Positions 25,266 through 50,492 of a stretch of 64,000 bases of DNA are shown in pieces. The position numbers and the translations under genes were made by a program. Each line of letters starts with the position of its first letter. Positions within the stretch are counted from its first letter, which is position 1. The notes beneath the pieces were generated by a model. That model did not search any database, was not told the DNA's origin, and saw nothing but the letters and a program-made list of their open reading frames with translations. Origin of the DNA: Thermoanaerobaculia bacterium (GTDB lineage: Bacteria; Acidobacteriota; Thermoanaerobaculia; UBA5066); NCBI GenBank assembly GCA_963719225.1, contig CAVRAY010000001.1, positions 1,760,001 to 1,824,000 on the forward strand, written 5' to 3'.

Positions 25266-30917
<5,652 letters not shown>

Positions 30918-43824: not shown

Positions 43825-44172
43825 CTACGGCGACAAGACTCGTCGAAGCAACGACTCGAGCGCGAGACGGTCCAGCTTCTCCAATCGTCCGAGCCTTCGC
43901 AGGCGGAGACTCTTCTCGAAGGTCGCCAGGACGGGCTTGATCGTGGAAGGGCCGATCAGGCCGGCCTTCTTCCACCCCGTGATGGGGAGATGGAAGCCCG
44001 AGTCTCTCTGCACCTGGCTCGTGATGGCCATCAGTACGATGTCGGGAAGATTCTGGTTGCAGGCGGCCGAACTGACCACGACCGCGGGGCGGCGCTTGGT
44101 GCCGGCCTGATTCGTGAACGGGAAGGGGACCAGGACGATGTCGCCGAACTCAAAGCTTGTCGTAGGCGGCAT
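43825..44172 (-). CDS. PemK/MazF-family toxin
   Basis: GDIVLVPFPFT...KRRPAVVVS...AITS. Confidence 0.9.
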   Translation of the reverse strand: MPPTTSFEFGDIVLVPFPFTNQAGTKRRPAVVVSSAACNQNLPDIVLMAITSQVQRDSGFHLPITGWKKAGLIGPSTIKPVLATFEKSLRLRRLGRLEKLDRLALESLLRRVLSP

Positions 44173-44371
44173 CGATCGGGTTGTCCCACACGCGGCGGAA
44201 CGAGGGCTCCGACATCTTCAGGGCAGCGCGCCGAAGCTTGTCGTCCTCGTTTTTCTGCCGGAGGAAGTCGACGAAGTCCTCCACCTCGGTCAGCCTCTCG
44301 GGAGGAAGCTCTCGGAGTTTGTCGTCGAGCGACGGCGGCCGGGGAGCACGGGAGTTGACGGCTTTCTTCAT
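44150..44371 (-). CDS. DUF2281-like antitoxin
   Basis: LPPERLTEVEDFVDFL...SEPSFRRVWDNPIDAAYDKL; overlaps the toxin start. Confidence 0.8.
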   Translation of the reverse strand: MKKAVNSRAPRPPSLDDKLRELPPERLTEVEDFVDFLRQKNEDDKLRRAALKMSEPSFRRVWDNPIDAAYDKL

Positions 44372-44434
44372 CGCTCCTGATTCTACGCGCTCCGGCGACT
44401 CAGCATCGTCAGCTCGCGTGACGGCCGGCGCCTT

Positions 44435-45946
44435 TCACTGCCGGCGCACGAAGCTCCAGAATTCCTTTTCGAGGGACTTCGTATCCGTGCCGAGGGCGGC
44501 AGCGAGTGCGTCGAGGCCCGCGGGCGCGCCGAGTGCCGCGGCGCGGAGGAAGACGCGGAAACGTTCCGTGCGCGCCGGATCCCCGCCGAGAAGGAAGCGG
44601 ACGAGGAGACCGGCCTGGGTGTAAGCGTCGCGCCGCGTGCGGGCGTGGGCGAAAAGACGGGTGGCTCGCTCGAGCACCCCGGAGAGGGGCAGTCCGCGGC
44701 CAGCACGAACGCGCTCGAGGAACTCCTTCACCGTGGCGCGGGAACCTGACGAGACGCGCACCACGCGGTCGCCCGTTTTCCGTTCCGACGTGACCGAGTC
44801 GAGAGTTCCGCTCAGGAGCCGGCCCTCCGCGTCCGCCCGGCACCACGCGAGATCTTCCGACAGGCCTTCGGCGATCCACGGCGGGGCCTCCCGCGCGAAG
44901 ACCTCCTGCGACAGGAGGTGCGCCAGCTCGTGTACGACGGTCTGCCGCGTCTCTTCGGCCGTGAGTCCGGCCAGCGCCGCGGCGATTCCGCCGCCCGCGT
45001 GCCCGCGCGTGTCGAGAGTCTCGGGATCCGACCGCGGCACGTGCACGCCCTCCACCCAGACGATGCGCTGCCGGTCCACGAGGGCCGTGAGCCGCCTCGT
45101 GGCTTCTTCGAACGCCTTTGGTCCCGAGACGTCCGTCGCGTCGGACGCTTTTCCCCATGCCGCGGCTTCGGCCGCTCCGGTGCCGACGGTCCAGATGAGG
45201 AGCGGCACGCGGAGGCACCCGAGGAAGTTCCGGGCGGCCGGGGCCGGGAGCCGGCTGGCGTCCTTCGAGCCCGCGAGCAGCAGAACGACCGCTCGCGGAC
45301 GGCTGTTCGCCGAGACATCGAGGCCCGCGACCGCCACGGCGTCGGCGAAGCGGCGCTCCTCCGGCAGGCCGGGCGGGAAGACGCGCCTTCGTCGAGAACG
45401 ACCGAGATTTCGCCGGATCCCTCTTCCGACGCGACGACCTTCAAGGGAGCGCCGTTGGCGAGAAACCAGCCGCCCATCTCGCTTGCAGAGGGCAGCTTCT
45501 TCTTCTCGAAGAGGATCGGCACGGCGGTCAGTTCGGCCTGTGTCTGGTCGCGATTGAGGCCTCCGAACGTGATCTCCGCGGAGGTGGAGGTTTGTCCGGG
45601 AAACTCCAGCTCGGCCCGCAGGAAGTGGAGCTGCTCTGGGACGAACGCGGGAAGCGCGATCCGGGAAGGGTCGAGAGCGAAGCCTCGGCCAGGGACCGCT
45701 GGAGTTGATCTTCTGCAAGGTCTTTCCGATTTCCACGCCGGAGGCGTCGAAAGCGGTCGCTTCGAGGTGGTGAGGCACCGGCGAGGGACCGAAATCGACG
45801 TCGATCCGCCAGGGCTCGCCGCGGAGGCGGCCCAGCATCCGGCCGTCCAGTCGGACCTCGACGGCCGCGACCTCCTTCTCGACGGCCAACTCAACCGGAT
45901 GGACACCGCTGACGAGACCCAGGAAGATGGAGATAAACGTCAGCAT
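44435..45946 (-). pseudogene. Degenerate/chimeric hypothetical gene with C-terminal gluzincin-type motif
   Basis: Protein-like text switches frame near 45690 and back near 45390; C-terminal HELAH...WIAEGLSE. Confidence 0.5.
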
Positions 45947-46114
45947 CCCGGCCAGATACTCATTTTCTGAGAAATCTTCATTTCCGGGGCCTGATTCATC
46001 CTCATCAGTCGTTTTTTCTCTTGACACACCTCATTCGTGAAACAATTCATCCAGGTTCAACTAGGAGTACCAGACCCGTGGTCCACGCGGGCGCGGTTCC
46101 TCCAGGAGTCGTCC

Positions 46115-46741
46115 ATGGCAACGTGGGACACGACGGAAGGCATGGGGCTGACGCCGGCACTCGCTGGTGGTGGTTCGATGGCTGAAGCGTCGGTCCTGCG
46201 CGCCGTTCTCTCAGACGAGCTTCCCGTATCGGACGACGTCTCTTCGGAAGCCGCGGGCATCACTCCCGGAGAGTGGGACTGGACCGCGCTGAACAACGTG
46301 CTCCGCCCCAAGCTGATCGGCCTCGCGGTGAGGAAGTACAACTTCAGCCGCGAAGAGGCGGAAGACGCGGTTCAGACCGTCTACATGCGCGTTCTCGCGC
46401 GTGATCCGCGCGTCAAGGACCCGATCGGCTACGTGAAGATTGCGTTCCTCAACACCTGCCTGAACATTGCGATGGCGAAAGAGCGCAGCGTCCAGCAGAT
46501 GCCGGAAGAGATGGACGTGGCCGACCCGAAATGCGAGAAGGTCACGGCGCGCCTCGAGGCCGTGCGCATGGTCAACAAGGCCATCCGCAGTGCCGGGCCG
46601 AAGTGCAAGCGCATCGTGCGGCTCTACTTCGGGCAGGAATACAGCCTGGCCGACATGACGAAGGCCACGGGCTACTCCAAGAAGACCGTGTGGAAGCGCA
46701 TCTGGGGCTGCCTCGACAAGATGCGTAAGGTGCTCGCGTGA
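46115..46741 (+). CDS. ECF-type sigma-70 factor
   Basis: Region 2 SREEAEDAVQTVY; region 4 RIVRLYFGQEYSLADMTKATGYSKKTVWKRI; AGGAG RBS. Confidence 0.88.
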   Translation: MATWDTTEGMGLTPALAGGGSMAEASVLRAVLSDELPVSDDVSSEAAGITPGEWDWTALNNVLRPKLIGLAVRKYNFSREEAEDAVQTVYMRVLARDPRVKDPIGYVKIAFLNTCLNIAMAKERSVQQMPEEMDVADPKCEKVTARLEAVRMVNKAIRSAGPKCKRIVRLYFGQEYSLADMTKATGYSKKTVWKRIWGCLDKMRKVLA

Positions 46742-48174
46742 GCGCGGAGCTCCGGGCTGTGTCTTCGCACCCCGAGCAGTGGGAGCTCTTCGAGCTCGTG
46801 ACCGAAGGCTCGACCGAGCTGAATGCGCACGTGAAGGCGCACGTCGTCGCCGGCTGCCCGTCGTGCGGCAAGCACCTCGACGACATCCGCACGCTCTCGA
46901 GGGCGCGCGAGATGAAGGAAGAGTTCGACGCCTTCTTCGACGAGCTGCCCCAGGACGACGCCCCGCCCTCCGAGCGCGAGGAGTTCCTCCTCAAGTTCAA
47001 GAAGAAGAACCGCCCCGCCGACCGCCTCGGCCGCCTCTCCCACGACGGCCGCCAGCTCGCGGCGGAAATCGTGAAGGCGGTTTCGGAAGAAGGGCTCGAC
47101 AAGGCGAAGGAGCTGCTTGGGAAGATCGAAGCGGACCCGAGCCGCGGGTACGCGTACCTGTATGCATGCCAGCTTGCAGCGCCGAAAGCTTCCAGTAATC
47201 CTGCGATGTATGTTGAGTTCGCAAAGTGTGTCGCAGAGTCCACGCGTAGCCTTCCCTATCTCGTTGAAAAGGGGCCAGCTCAACCCGTGTGCCGCGAACA
47301 GGTGCTCGGAGAGGCCGGGCTTTTGGAGTCAAACGCTCTGAACTTCCTCGGAGAGCCAACCGCAGCGCGAAAGGCGGCACAAAAAGCGCGCCTGAGTTTC
47401 GTCGAGGCCAACGAGGACAGTTTCGCTCTCGCGCTTGTGGATTATTTCGAAGGGTCAGCGGCCACGTTCGAGGGCGACTTCAATGCAGCCTGGAAGCTCT
47501 TGAAGGCCGCGCGTGCGGAGTTCCAGATCTTTGGGCAGGAGAACTGGCAGGGCCGAAGCGACGCCTCACTCGGAACGGTGATGCTCGGTAGGGGCAAGAA
47601 CGAGTCGGCCGTGTATTTCTTCGAAAGTGCGTTGCGGAACCTCCATCCGGTACTCGACGAAGCAGCTTACGCGAATACGGTGATCAACCGCGGTGCTTCG
47701 CTGGTGAGTCTCGGCCGCCTGGACGCGGCGAAGTCTGCTTTCGCCAAGGGCCTCGTGTTTGCTCGTCGCCTGAATCTCAAGGTCGGGCTCTTCATCATTC
47801 GTTACGGTCTTGCGACAATCGAGCTGCTCCGGAATCATCCTACGAAGGCGTTGGACCTCTTCCAGCGAATTCGCGAGGATGCGAGACGCGAAGGCTTCTC
47901 CGCGCGTGTCCTCTCGGCTGATCTTCGGATCGCCGAGTGCCTGGGTCGACTTGGACGTGCCGAAGAGATGACCGAGTGCTTGAGCGAACTCCGTAATTCG
48001 GAGTTGATAGGTGTTGCGGGCTTTGATTCAGGCCTCCGTGAGCTCTTCGCTACCGTGGATCAGGAAGCGGTTTCGACCGATCTTCTGGCGCATGTCGCCC
48101 GGTTCGTTGAGGGCCACGATCGCGGTTCGCGCGCTGCTTACAAACCATACCGTCTGGTTGCGAACGGAAGTTGA
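46738..48174 (+). CDS. Soluble protein with N-terminal Zn-finger (HxxxxCxxC, ZAS-like) and TPR-like helical repeats
   Basis: HVVAGCPSC; repeats such as NRGASLVSLGRLDAAKSAFAKGL; GTGA overlap with the sigma gene; no obvious TM helix. Confidence 0.75.
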   Translation: MSAELRAVSSHPEQWELFELVTEGSTELNAHVKAHVVAGCPSCGKHLDDIRTLSRAREMKEEFDAFFDELPQDDAPPSEREEFLLKFKKKNRPADRLGRLSHDGRQLAAEIVKAVSEEGLDKAKELLGKIEADPSRGYAYLYACQLAAPKASSNPAMYVEFAKCVAESTRSLPYLVEKGPAQPVCREQVLGEAGLLESNALNFLGEPTAARKAAQKARLSFVEANEDSFALALVDYFEGSAATFEGDFNAAWKLLKAARAEFQIFGQENWQGRSDASLGTVMLGRGKNESAVYFFESALRNLHPVLDEAAYANTVINRGASLVSLGRLDAAKSAFAKGLVFARRLNLKVGLFIIRYGLATIELLRNHPTKALDLFQRIREDARREGFSARVLSADLRIAECLGRLGRAEEMTECLSELRNSELIGVAGFDSGLRELFATVDQEAVSTDLLAHVARFVEGHDRGSRAAYKPYRLVANGS

Positions 48175-48211
48175 TCGTTCTCTAAACATCGTTCATAGAC
48201 AGGGGGCCGAG

Positions 48212-48295
48212 GTGCCATGAACCGGGTACCTCACATGATTTCTTTTAAGAGGGGGGTCAAAGGTGTGCCCCCGTCTGTCCGTGTATATAGCCCAC
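48212..48295 (+). promoter_or_regulatory. Promoter-like repeat copy 1 (putative ECF promoter plus operator)
   Basis: GTGCC-N8-GGTAC...GGGGGTCAAAG-N12-CTGTCC-N7-TAGCCCAC. Confidence 0.6.
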
Positions 48296-48361
48296 AGCTG
48301 GACAACCACAGCACTAACCAATTGTTGGTGATCCGTTAGCGCGGAGCACCAGGAGGACGTA

Positions 48362-48487
48362 ATGAGAGAGTTCGATTGTGAGTTCAGCTTGTTTTCATAT
48401 TTCATTGATCTACTTGGACTTAAGGGTAGTTCCTCGGAGGACGCGTCCGGCACGTGCAACATCAACGCCGGACCCATCGGCGCCTGA
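48362..48487 (+). CDS. 41-aa peptide MREFDCEFSLFSYFIDLLGLKGSSSEDASGTCNINAGPIGA (absent from ORF track)
   Basis: Perfect AGGAGG at 48351-48356; follows repeat copy 1; imperfect hairpin after the stop (~48512-48535). Confidence 0.7.
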   Translation: MREFDCEFSLFSYFIDLLGLKGSSSEDASGTCNINAGPIGA

Positions 48488-48587
48488 CAACTAATTCCCA
48501 ATAACTAACCAACAGGCTGGCTTGGCTAGCCCTGTGCAAGGTGTGTTTGCGCGTGAAATCGCGCGTTTTCGTGTTCTTGGCTGGTCA

Positions 48588-48670
48588 GTGCCCCGAATTG
48601 GGTACTCGAAAAAAAATCTTTGGTAAGGGGGTCAAAGCTGCGTGGCGGCCTGTCCTTACTATTAGCCCAC
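48588..48670 (+). promoter_or_regulatory. Promoter-like repeat copy 2
   Basis: Same blocks and same N8/N12/N7 spacing as copy 1. Confidence 0.6.
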
Positions 48671-48739
48671 CCTTAGACGAACCCTCGCCCAAGCTGGTGG
48701 ACATTCGAGCAAATGAAGCCGCTGGTTCCCCTTGGCCGC

Positions 48740-48862
48740 TCACGCCGGCGCCGAGGCGGATGTCTCCGCCCCTCGCCCCGCGTACCGCGCGATGCCGTTT
48801 CCGAACGACCAGCTCTCCTTCGGGACCTCGACGAGGTTCACGAGGACGTCCTCTTCCCTGAA
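48740..48862 (-). pseudogene. C-terminal fragment of a tautomerase-family gene
   Basis: Manual translation REEDVLVNLVEVPKESWSFGNGIARYA; the 5' part is missing. Confidence 0.65.
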
Positions 48863-48927: not shown

Positions 48928-49170
48928 ATGCCGACCGTTCTTCGAGATGGTCCCTGGCGCTTCTACTTCTTTAGTCACGAACCGAATGAACCTCCTCACA
49001 TCCACGTTGACCGCGATGATTTGTCGGCCAAGTTCTGGCTCGGACCAGTGGCTCTCGCACGTAATTTCGGATTCAGTGCGAACGAGTTGCGACGGCTCGA
49101 GGCAATCGTGAGGGAGCGCGAAACGTCTTTCCTGGAGGCATGGTATGGGTATTTTGGCCAGCAGCTCTGA
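48928..49170 (+). CDS. DUF4160 protein (putative TA component)
   Basis: MPTVLRDGPWRFYFFSHEPNEPPHIHV...AKFWL. Confidence 0.9.
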   Translation: MPTVLRDGPWRFYFFSHEPNEPPHIHVDRDDLSAKFWLGPVALARNFGFSANELRRLEAIVRERETSFLEAWYGYFGQQL

Positions 49171-49414
49171 CGAACGAGTCACGGGAGTGAGCGTGACGGA
49201 CGATGCCCTCACTGTGTCGCTCGGCGACGGTCGCGTGATTTCCGTGCCTTTGGCATGGTATCCGCGCCTTCTTCACGCGACGGTCGATCAGCGCGCGCGC
49301 TGGCAGGTGAGCGCAGGTGGGTATGGTATCCACTGGCCAGAGATCGATGAAGACCTCTCGGTCGAGGGGCTTCTCAGGGGCGCTCCGGCTCCGCGAACGA
49401 CCGTGAAGGTCTAG
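49145..49414 (+). CDS. DUF2442 protein (putative TA component)
   Basis: DGRVISVPLAWYPRL, GIHWPEIDEDLSVEGLL. Confidence 0.9.
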   Translation: MGILASSSDERVTGVSVTDDALTVSLGDGRVISVPLAWYPRLLHATVDQRARWQVSAGGYGIHWPEIDEDLSVEGLLRGAPAPRTTVKV

Positions 49415-49825: not shown

Positions 49826-50254
49826 TCACGCGAACGGATTCCGAACGCGAATCGCTCCGAACGACTGCCCGGCGTTGAGGTCTTCCGACCAGATCGTCGC
49901 GCAGCGGAGCTGGCTGGCGCTCTGCAAGATGAGGGCGTCCCAGAGGGAGATACGTTTCTTTCGATGGAGGTCGATGGCCGCGAGGACGTCCGCGCGAACG
50001 GGTTCGTGAAGAGTCCATTGCGAAAGGTCCTCGATCAGCGCGGCGGCTCCCGCTGCCGGCATCGGCTTCGACACCTTGCGGGTGATCGTGACGTAGAGCT
50101 CCTGCAGGACCTGAAGGCTGAGACAGCCCTGCCCGGAGCGCCACAGGCCGGCGACGAGCTCGCGTGCCTGCTCAGCTTTGGCCCCTGCGCCTCCGTCGTA
50201 GGCGTAAACCAGGACGTTCGTGTCGACGAATTCCCGGACCGGTTCAGCGCTCAT
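49826..50254 (-). CDS. PIN-domain (VapC-like) toxin
   Basis: FVDTNVLVYA, QVLQE, SLWDALI, WSEDL. Confidence 0.92.
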   Translation of the reverse strand: MSAEPVREFVDTNVLVYAYDGGAGAKAEQARELVAGLWRSGQGCLSLQVLQELYVTITRKVSKPMPAAGAAALIEDLSQWTLHEPVRADVLAAIDLHRKKRISLWDALILQSASQLRCATIWSEDLNAGQSFGAIRVRNPFA

Positions 50255-50492
50255 GGAGCGAGCCGCGGGTCCACGTGACCTGGCCCCGTGTGCCGAGGTT
50301 CAGAGGCCGCTTCAGCCGCGCGAGCGCGCGCTCGCGAGCCGCGGCATAAGCGTCCTCACGCTCGACGATCTCTTCCAGCATTCCGGCGAGAAGGGCCGAG
50401 ACGGAGGTCTGCCGCTCGACCGCGAGGATCTTCACCTTCCTGAGAACGGGCTTCGGAAGCGCGAGCGTGATGTTCTGGATGGGCTCTTTCAC
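50244..50492 (-). CDS. Ribbon-helix-helix antitoxin
   Basis: QNITLALPKPVLRKVKILAVERQTSVSALL...WTRGSLHER; overlaps the PIN gene. Confidence 0.85.
   Translation of the reverse strand: MKEPIQNITLALPKPVLRKVKILAVERQTSVSALLAGMLEEIVEREDAYAAARERALARLKRPLNLGTRGQVTWTRGSLHER

Follow-up and report, generated by a model that had tools for sequence, protein, structure and literature searches.

The stretch of DNA analysed here (the window) covers 64,000 nucleotides (nt) of a Thermoanaerobaculia bacterium (GenBank assembly GCA_963719225.1, contig CAVRAY010000001.1, positions 1,760,001 to 1,824,000). It carries a conserved unit of three genes of an uncultured soil acidobacterium, encoding a sigma factor of the extracytoplasmic function (ECF) type, its probable inhibitor, which combines a zinc-binding anti-sigma (ZAS) domain with tetratricopeptide repeats (TPR), and a tiny peptide (Table 1). 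An original prediction, made from the letters of the sequence, had taken these genes for a peptide-signalling circuit like those of the RRNPP quorum sensors, with sigma factor control as its output. The relatives compared below are Thermoanaerobaculia of the phylum Acidobacteriota.

Table 1. Features of the locus in window coordinates (aa, amino acids; ORF, open reading frame).
Feature	Position	Strand	Basis
Promoter-like element of housekeeping type for the ECF/anti-sigma operon: TTGACA followed by TG-n-AACAAT, at a spacing that is short for sigma-70	46021..46046	+	putative function
ECF sigma factor, 208 aa, start MATW	46115..46741	+	TIGR02937 above cut-off
Soluble ZAS-TPR protein, 478 aa; predicted anti-sigma factor and peptide receptor	46738..48174	+	profiles, model
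7-bp RNA hairpin 3' of the TPR stop codon, then A/T-rich stretch; possible terminator of the ECF-TPR operon	48210..48231	+	
Bipartite element GGGGTCAAA-N14-TGTCC..TATAG, conserved; likely ECF promoter of the peptide gene	48252..48295	+	
Shine-Dalgarno sequence AGGAGG	48351..48356	+	
41-aa pro-peptide made of an acidic/aromatic amphipathic leader, a Ser/acidic linker and a C-terminal core	48362..48487	+	
Predicted mature core INAGPIG, residues 34-40; Ala41 possibly kept	48461..48481	+	
Terminator-like hairpin 3' of the peptide gene; each pair canonical in 27-30 of 31 sequences	48549..48576	+	
Promoter element, second copy; no ORF behind it in the window	48627..48670	+	

The first gene product has the architecture of an ECF sigma factor, with sigma-2 and sigma-4 only in about 200 aa. 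It scored 43.4 bits against TIGR02937 (cut-off, 42.9), and the Pfam families sigma70_r2 and r4 were matched under their cut-offs only; mean pairwise identity among its orthologues (n = 23) is 90%. The predicted 4-nt overlap with the partner gene is there (GTGA) and is preserved in 23 of the 23 loci tabulated, out of 25 orthologous loci. The partner also has the ZAS-like HxxxxCxxC N-terminus attributed to it, formed by H11 and H35-x4-C40-x2-C43, and H35, C40 and C43 are invariant in all 43 aligned homologues. A profile built from the N-termini of these 43 homologues matched RslA, ChrR, DdvA and RsiW; zf-HC2 was matched by 14 of the 43 and not by the window's own domain. Consistent with a ZAS domain, the pattern H/C-x(22-26)-H-x3/4-C-x2-C lies in a three-helix bundle directly after the ECF gene, with helices at residues 14-23, 30-37 and 41-69 and a domain of approximately residues 11-69 in the AlphaFold2 model (pLDDT 87.8 for the 478-aa protein). 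The TPR-like body likewise held up, with TPR_12 above its cut-off and an all-helical solenoid at approximately residues 93-475. The protein is soluble in that its sequence has no hydrophobic membrane span and the solenoid is continuous after the ZAS domain; a domain profile search found no match to a CHAT domain in it. It is thus likely, from these sequence features, to be an ECF inhibitor with a repeat domain of the peptide-binding type. TPR homologues are present in 28 of 28 genomes of the same genus; at family level, 55 of 62 genomes have one at E 1e-40, and phylum-wide, matches at E 1e-30 occur in 5 of 201 genomes, G037 among the five, and the ESM Atlas returned Acidobacteriota TPR clusters only, without names.

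The peptide gene follows the TPR gene at a distance of 187 nt. Both the AGGAGG and the unannotated 41-aa ORF were found where they had been predicted. Homologous loci, whose lack of a small ORF had been set beforehand as the refuting outcome, carry one in 22 of 25 cases; these loci were picked by TPR similarity, and the remaining 3 are contigs ending before the peptide position. In the same 22 loci, the conserved element upstream of the peptide gene is followed 54-58 nt further on by GGAGGA and then by the small ORF. Among non-duplicate loci bearing this element, a set that includes 26 metagenome loci picked by it, the small ORF is present in 43 of 43 (42 with ATG, one with GTG). The layout recurs in the paralogous clades C and D, and the genome's own second copy, of clade C, encodes a peptide with three copies of ISSTPIG (C1:3076745-3076900).

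Comparison of 74 distinct peptides showed a hypervariable sequence with a C-terminal 7-residue core, xxxxP(I/V)x, the strict P[IV] motif ending 67 of them; 73 of the 74 are 18-56 aa long. Tandem cores occur in 16 of the 74, and their copies are separated by 78 synonymous versus 9 nonsynonymous differences (proportions pS 0.49 and pN 0.02). The window's own genome has 468 ORFs of 15-105 aa led by GGAGG; only two of them terminate in P[IV]x, each situated after an ECF/TPR pair, an association beyond chance. Judging from these sequences, the 7-residue core is under coding selection. Since the usual period is 7 and tandem forms stop exactly at the heptamer, the core of the window peptide was placed at INAGPIG(A); INAGPIG itself stands three times in tandem in locus L007. 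Within the C-terminal TCNINAGPIGA noted originally, the likely signal is thereby narrowed to this heptamer, to the exclusion of the Cys-containing stretch.

The promoter-like element noted upstream of the peptide gene proved to be a 44-nt element conserved in relatives; it is not of the sigma-70 type, a sigma-70 promoter scan having returned 0 sites. The pattern GGTCAAA-N14/15-TGTCY had 77 matches in 29 genomes, versus 1 for a reversed-pattern control, and 64 of the 77 sites lie at modules. The element and the sigma-4 stretch S.KTVWKR are common to clades A and C, and both are different in clade D. This joint difference makes the element the likely promoter from which the cognate ECF transcribes the peptide gene. 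Among the 13 non-module sites, 6 inside long ORFs and 1 without a G-run were taken as chance, and a candidate target at C1:3497042 was rejected because it lies inside a coding gene. Six non-module sites are intergenic, and a looser pattern added three. Behind these nine sites are three ceramidase-like genes, one LCAT-like lipase gene, three genes for proteins with exported-type N-termini and two small unknowns, none of them a genus-wide target. A 40-aa ORF at 48217-48339 was rejected as a gene: it overlaps the promoter, and its start and length are unconserved.

The co-variation of peptide and TPR protein proposed at the outset was found. The core tracks the TPR domain, mainly at predicted groove positions, and does not track the sigma factor, the ZAS domain, the intergenic DNA or the leader. 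Among orthologues, the TPR part is mostly 53-65% identical to that of the window, and its synonymous divergence is near saturation (~0.7, versus 0.22-0.46 in the ECF gene). Set against the 90% identity of the ECF, this indicates old alleles shuffled behind a conserved sigma/ZAS part. In 23 complete loci, core similarity correlated with that of TPR residues 201-400 (r 0.43; partial Mantel r 0.39, p 0.0002, once ECF, ZAS and intergenic DNA were accounted for). The leader, though it sits between TPR and core, did not follow the TPR (partial r 0.03, p 0.31). The TPR tree (32 rows) clusters by core type, joining the window, L102 (INATPIG) and L007 at 99/98, whereas the ECF+ZAS tree places the window and L007 in separate clades at 100/100. 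Conversely, L003 and L006 have ECFs 97-98% identical to the window's, yet TPR parts of 57-59% identity and different cores. Three loci (L024, L025 and L034) with ORFs lacking a terminal core and with frameshifted TPR genes were excluded from the co-variation tests.

The groove was defined, before testing, as TPR positions 2, 5, 6, 9, 12 and 13 (36 positions in all), which are described as contacting the ligand in HOP (PMC1261162). The window and L007 are 92% identical at the groove positions versus 67% elsewhere. In 31 loci, core similarity followed the groove given the rest (r 0.32, p 0.0005) and not the rest given the groove (r 0.06), and the groove signal was replicated in 17 loci of clade C (r 0.36, p 0.0015). 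The four variable core residues would define the pherotype, and, if the circuit is real, about 30 natural pairs of receptor and core, the groove residues of which can be named, would provide its code. Complex prediction for TPR residues 92-478 with peptide residues 12-41 gave a score of 0.00, a result that counts neither way.

Receptors without a peptide provide a further line of evidence. A group-B module, which is absent from the window's genome, lies 0.6-6 kb downstream of some orthologues and consists of its own ECF gene and a gene for a 740-aa protein (ZAS, a degenerate TPR copy and an intact TPR copy), with no peptide gene. In all four cases in which the neighbour is known, the orphan groove resembles another strain's receptor (0.83-0.97) more than that of its own locus (0.64-0.75). 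No matching peptide ends were found in G022 (96% complete) or G018 (82%), by a search that scored in control genomes. These orphans matching foreign grooves are the best argument for signal passing between cells, and they parallel the peptide-less eavesdropper Raps described in PMC9765709. Peptide-less ECF/ZAS-TPR pairs are also found convergent with clade-C modules (L046:2130-3518 and L051:4487-5953), with grooves resembling other clade-C types and not the neighbour's. In 3 of the 7 loci that have a group-B ECF, a second copy of the promoter element is found 200-360 nt upstream of this ECF, and the second copy in the window may be a relic. Second copies (window 48627-48760; L104, L109, L119 and L033) are followed, without an ORF, by a partly conserved leader and a 3' stretch resembling the one of the peptide gene; this region could be a remnant of the B operon, a decayed cassette for a peptide, or a small RNA.

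Other variants of the peptide gene were seen among relatives. In clade C, it is mostly followed by a conserved gene for 136 aa (MLRSHLPKEEPAGDV...; L038-L052 and the C1:3077000 region). Some sister-genus peptide genes (L202-L207 and L079) are encoded on the other strand, converging on the TPR gene, and their products end in RK.PIG-type cores. Some assemblies contain two clade-A modules (G016 C43/C159, G002 C64/C194, G024 C195/C60 and G003 C6/C3), with different cores where both are readable (G002); these could be true multi-pherotype genomes or mixed bins.

With regard to export, the original caveat that the peptide has no basic Sec n-region holds genus-wide: K or R is found among the first six residues in 6 of 74 peptides, Sec-likeness being judged by pattern and by eye. 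The first 7 residues of the window peptide include 1 Arg and 3 acidic residues, and its ORF has no hidden upstream extension. The leader is amphipathic (moment of 0.45 in the window). Ten homologous precursors of 92-104 aa from sister genera begin with a basic/hydrophobic, Sec-like N-terminus, continue with a comparable amphipathic segment and then a Pro/acidic linker, and close with the P[IV] end; other sister-genus modules are signal-less. The window peptide looks like such a precursor minus its signal sequence. For uptake, the genome encodes as candidate importers an OppA-like protein, oligopeptide ABC ATPases and four OPT-family loci; the genome search gave no match to SbmA and matched PTR2 under the cut-off only. 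Elsewhere in the window (25268-30917, minus strand) is encoded an 1882-aa protein with a Ser/Thr kinase, a middle part like the TOMM kinase/cyclase fusion and a pair of OppA-like domains for ligand binding, which may be a kinase that senses peptides in the cytoplasm; similar frames of ~1900 aa with two OppA-like domains occur across the genus.

The module lies between panB and pst/phoU, with cargo varying among relatives. The panB-pst interval is an insertion hotspot, and toxin-antitoxin-like pairs flank the module (PemK-like, 43825-44380; DUF4160/DUF2442, 48928-49414; PIN-type, 49826-50492). At 44435-46027, on the minus strand, is a frameshifted mosaic gene with a C-terminal part like HExxH peptidases, the pieces of which are separate or missing in relatives; it was rejected as a dedicated peptidase, being frameshifted and found in some loci only. 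Upstream of the ECF gene, the 23 orthologous loci share a TTGACA-like box and a TG-n-(A/C/T)(A/C/G)(C/G)AAT box. In the hairpin behind the TPR gene, each pair is canonical in 30-32 of 32 sequences, with GC/GU/AU and UA/UG exchanges. RNA runs yielded assembled contigs of relatives only, at small shares (4 runs from 3 studies); these contigs span ECF, TPR, promoter and the 3' end of the peptide gene and are no proof of transcription or translation.

Among known systems, RRNPP receptors are described as TPR proteins of 250-500 aa encoded beside a pro-peptide of 10-100 aa with a C-terminal core (PMC10075063). The module shares with them, most closely with Rap/Phr and also with NprR/NprX, PlcR/PapR and Rgg/SHP, a cytoplasmic TPR protein and an adjacent pro-peptide. 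Four of the five features that the available text of PMC10075063 uses are present (pro-peptide length, a 478-aa receptor, TPRs and adjacency). The fifth is a Sec signal or export of the SHP/PrgQ type by PptAB; judged by pattern, the window peptide has no Sec signal, so we claim a likeness in working only, and no membership. Rap/Phr systems also have tandem pheromone copies (PMC11343458), and Rap output is by protein-protein contact (PMC9765709), as proposed here. RRNPPA receptors differ in carrying a helix-turn-helix or the Rap three-helix bundle at the N-terminus, in place of the zinc anti-sigma domain seen here; the co-translated ECF, the diderm acidobacterial host and the missing Sec signal of this genus also set the module apart. 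The circuit of the original prediction is supported by the small ORF of homologous loci and by co-variation. The TPR fold is as close to LGN/Pins as to NprR/Rap and does not by itself point to RRNPP ancestry. Structural matches included NprR (Z 19.1; root-mean-square deviation 6.6, 319 aligned), RapI (17.6) and PlcR (16.8), and the TPR profile matched Rap (6t3h, E 2e-8) as well as OGT, kinesin light chain and LGN.

Of the ECF systems, DdvS/DdvA of Myxococcus xanthus likewise joins an ECF, a zinc three-helix anti-sigma domain and TPRs, and the ZAS profile matched DdvA at E 0.0017 with similar CHCC/HHCC ligand spacing. DdvA, however, is described as a membrane protein (ZAS, transmembrane segment, TPR, CHAT) with a periplasmic TPR-CHAT part and proposed proteolytic release (PMC11506125), whereas the protein of the window is soluble, lacks CHAT and adjoins a peptide gene, and is not of the DdvA type. 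ChrR, matched by the same profile, is a soluble ZAS anti-sigma factor, and TPRs are linked to ECF control in ECF42 (as a C-terminal extension) and ECF267 (with a FecR-like anti-sigma factor) (PMC7826278). For ChrR, ECF42 and ECF267, the available sections of PMC7826278 describe no soluble ZAS-TPR fusion or adjacent variable peptide, and the classification, in the same sections, lists no pheromone-gated anti-sigma factor. Cytoplasmic peptide quorum sensing is described for Bacillota (PMC10075063, PMC9765709), and a term search of PMC12700828 found neither Acidobacteria nor sigma. Our literature search, which covered few subscription papers and left supplements outside, found no description of an ECF/ZAS-TPR/peptide module. 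In Agr systems, the processing enzyme AgrB acts on a precursor with a charged tail after the core. An Agr/AgrD thiolactone is not indicated here: the core is C-terminal without a tail, and AgrB had no match in the 97% complete genome.

From sequence comparison, we consider the conserved sigma/ZAS-TPR/pro-peptide unit to be, with good probability, a strain-specific peptide communication switch, in which a logic like that of Rap/Phr is wired to an anti-sigma factor. In this model, ECF and ZAS-TPR would be co-translated from the housekeeping-type promoter and the ZAS domain would hold the ECF, leftover activity of which would transcribe the peptide gene from GGTCAAA-N14-TGTC. Export of the pro-peptide would go through Sec in sister genera and, in this genus, by another route that uses the amphipathic leader, and the product would be trimmed to about INAGPIG(A). 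The core would re-enter through an Opp- or OPT-type importer and bind the TPR groove, with affinity coming from the common P-I-x end and the pherotype from the four variable residues. Binding would then free the ECF; the peptide gene would come under positive feedback, and some relatives would also express exported hydrolases. Release was chosen as the sign by analogy with Rap/Phr, and we moderately favour it over the opposite sign. More tentatively, and at somewhat less than even confidence, the lineage may hold a multi-channel pheromone network, the first of its parts being pheromone-gated soluble anti-sigma factors in Gram-negative bacteria, the others the exit of signal-less pro-peptides by an undescribed route via an acidic amphipathic leader, and peptide-less ECF/double-TPR modules tuned to the pherotypes of other strains.

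Several observations weigh against the communication switch. The host lineage has two membranes, the genus is without a Sec n-region (among the first six residues, 6 of 74 peptides have K or R and 62 of 74 have D or E), and comparison of orthologous loci revealed no conserved exporter or peptidase. The window's own genome has three promoter sites only, at both peptide genes and at the orphan copy, and no effector gene, so that the output is thin or unseen. In the fold comparison, LGN (Z 22.4) and Pins (20.6) come closer than any RRNPP receptor does. Non-groove positions of clade C correlate almost equally (0.32); in clade D (15 loci) the groove test failed, at r -0.20 for the groove and 0.51 for the rest given the groove, and 15 of 300 randomly drawn position sets reached the clade-A groove value. 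The Mantel and permutation p-values are too optimistic, kin not being independent, and tandem copies were chosen at an amino acid identity of at least 5/7, which lowers pN. Finally, sigma-4 and ZAS are both missing from ten loci of clade C and from the second copy in the genome itself, where TPR, promoter and peptide are kept, a loss that the model leaves unexplained. In these truncated modules (G000 C1:3074867-3076900; L038, L039, L042-L044, L047-L050 and L052), the ECF is cut after sigma-2, in two truncation forms, with the 4-nt overlap intact.

Some of these points would suit a cell-autonomous sensor, in which the peptide is the TPR ligand and stays inside, its leader at the membrane and its core freed by a membrane protease; such a circuit would report the state of the envelope or protease, or act as a bistable switch or timer. 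The missing Sec signal, the lack of an exporter at the locus and an ECF element aimed almost solely at the module's peptide genes all fit it. We nevertheless regard it as unlikely, given the deep TPR+core allelic classes shuffled against a conserved ECF, the orphan receptors that match cores of other strains and the Sec-like precursors of sister genera. Less likely still is kin or danger recognition without active export, the peptide being released by lysis, vesicles or contact and cores, cognate or foreign, triggering competition or defence genes. Signal-less leaders, orphan receptors for foreign cores and promoter sites at ceramidase-like, lipase-like and exported proteins in some relatives agree with it, as does the ZAS match to DdvA, described as the controller of a defence island (PMC11506125). 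Yet no defence genes are conserved among the variable cargo of the locus, and the leader has retained its amphipathic segment from Sec-type precursors, which suggests directed processing. A precursor of the RiPP kind (a peptide made on ribosomes and modified after translation) or an antimicrobial, merely regulated by the ECF and co-varying with the TPR by linkage or as an immunity pair, is very improbable: tandem heptamers without spacer, a Cys often preceding the core and a weak match to the RiPP-associated TPR protein HaaT, far under the cut-off, recall such peptides, but no conserved modifying enzyme lies nearby, the Cys is not universal, and the leader and the DNA between TPR and core track the lineage of the ECF instead of that of the TPR.

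If the communication switch is real, its receptor-core code would be testable by synthetic heptapeptides in E. coli, culture of the host being unnecessary, and the modules would be a source of orthogonal peptide-inducible ECF switches. It would also pose a concrete question, namely how signal-less peptides are exported. Furthermore, it would extend communication by peptides to a diderm phylum that is abundant in soil, and couple it to sigma factor control.

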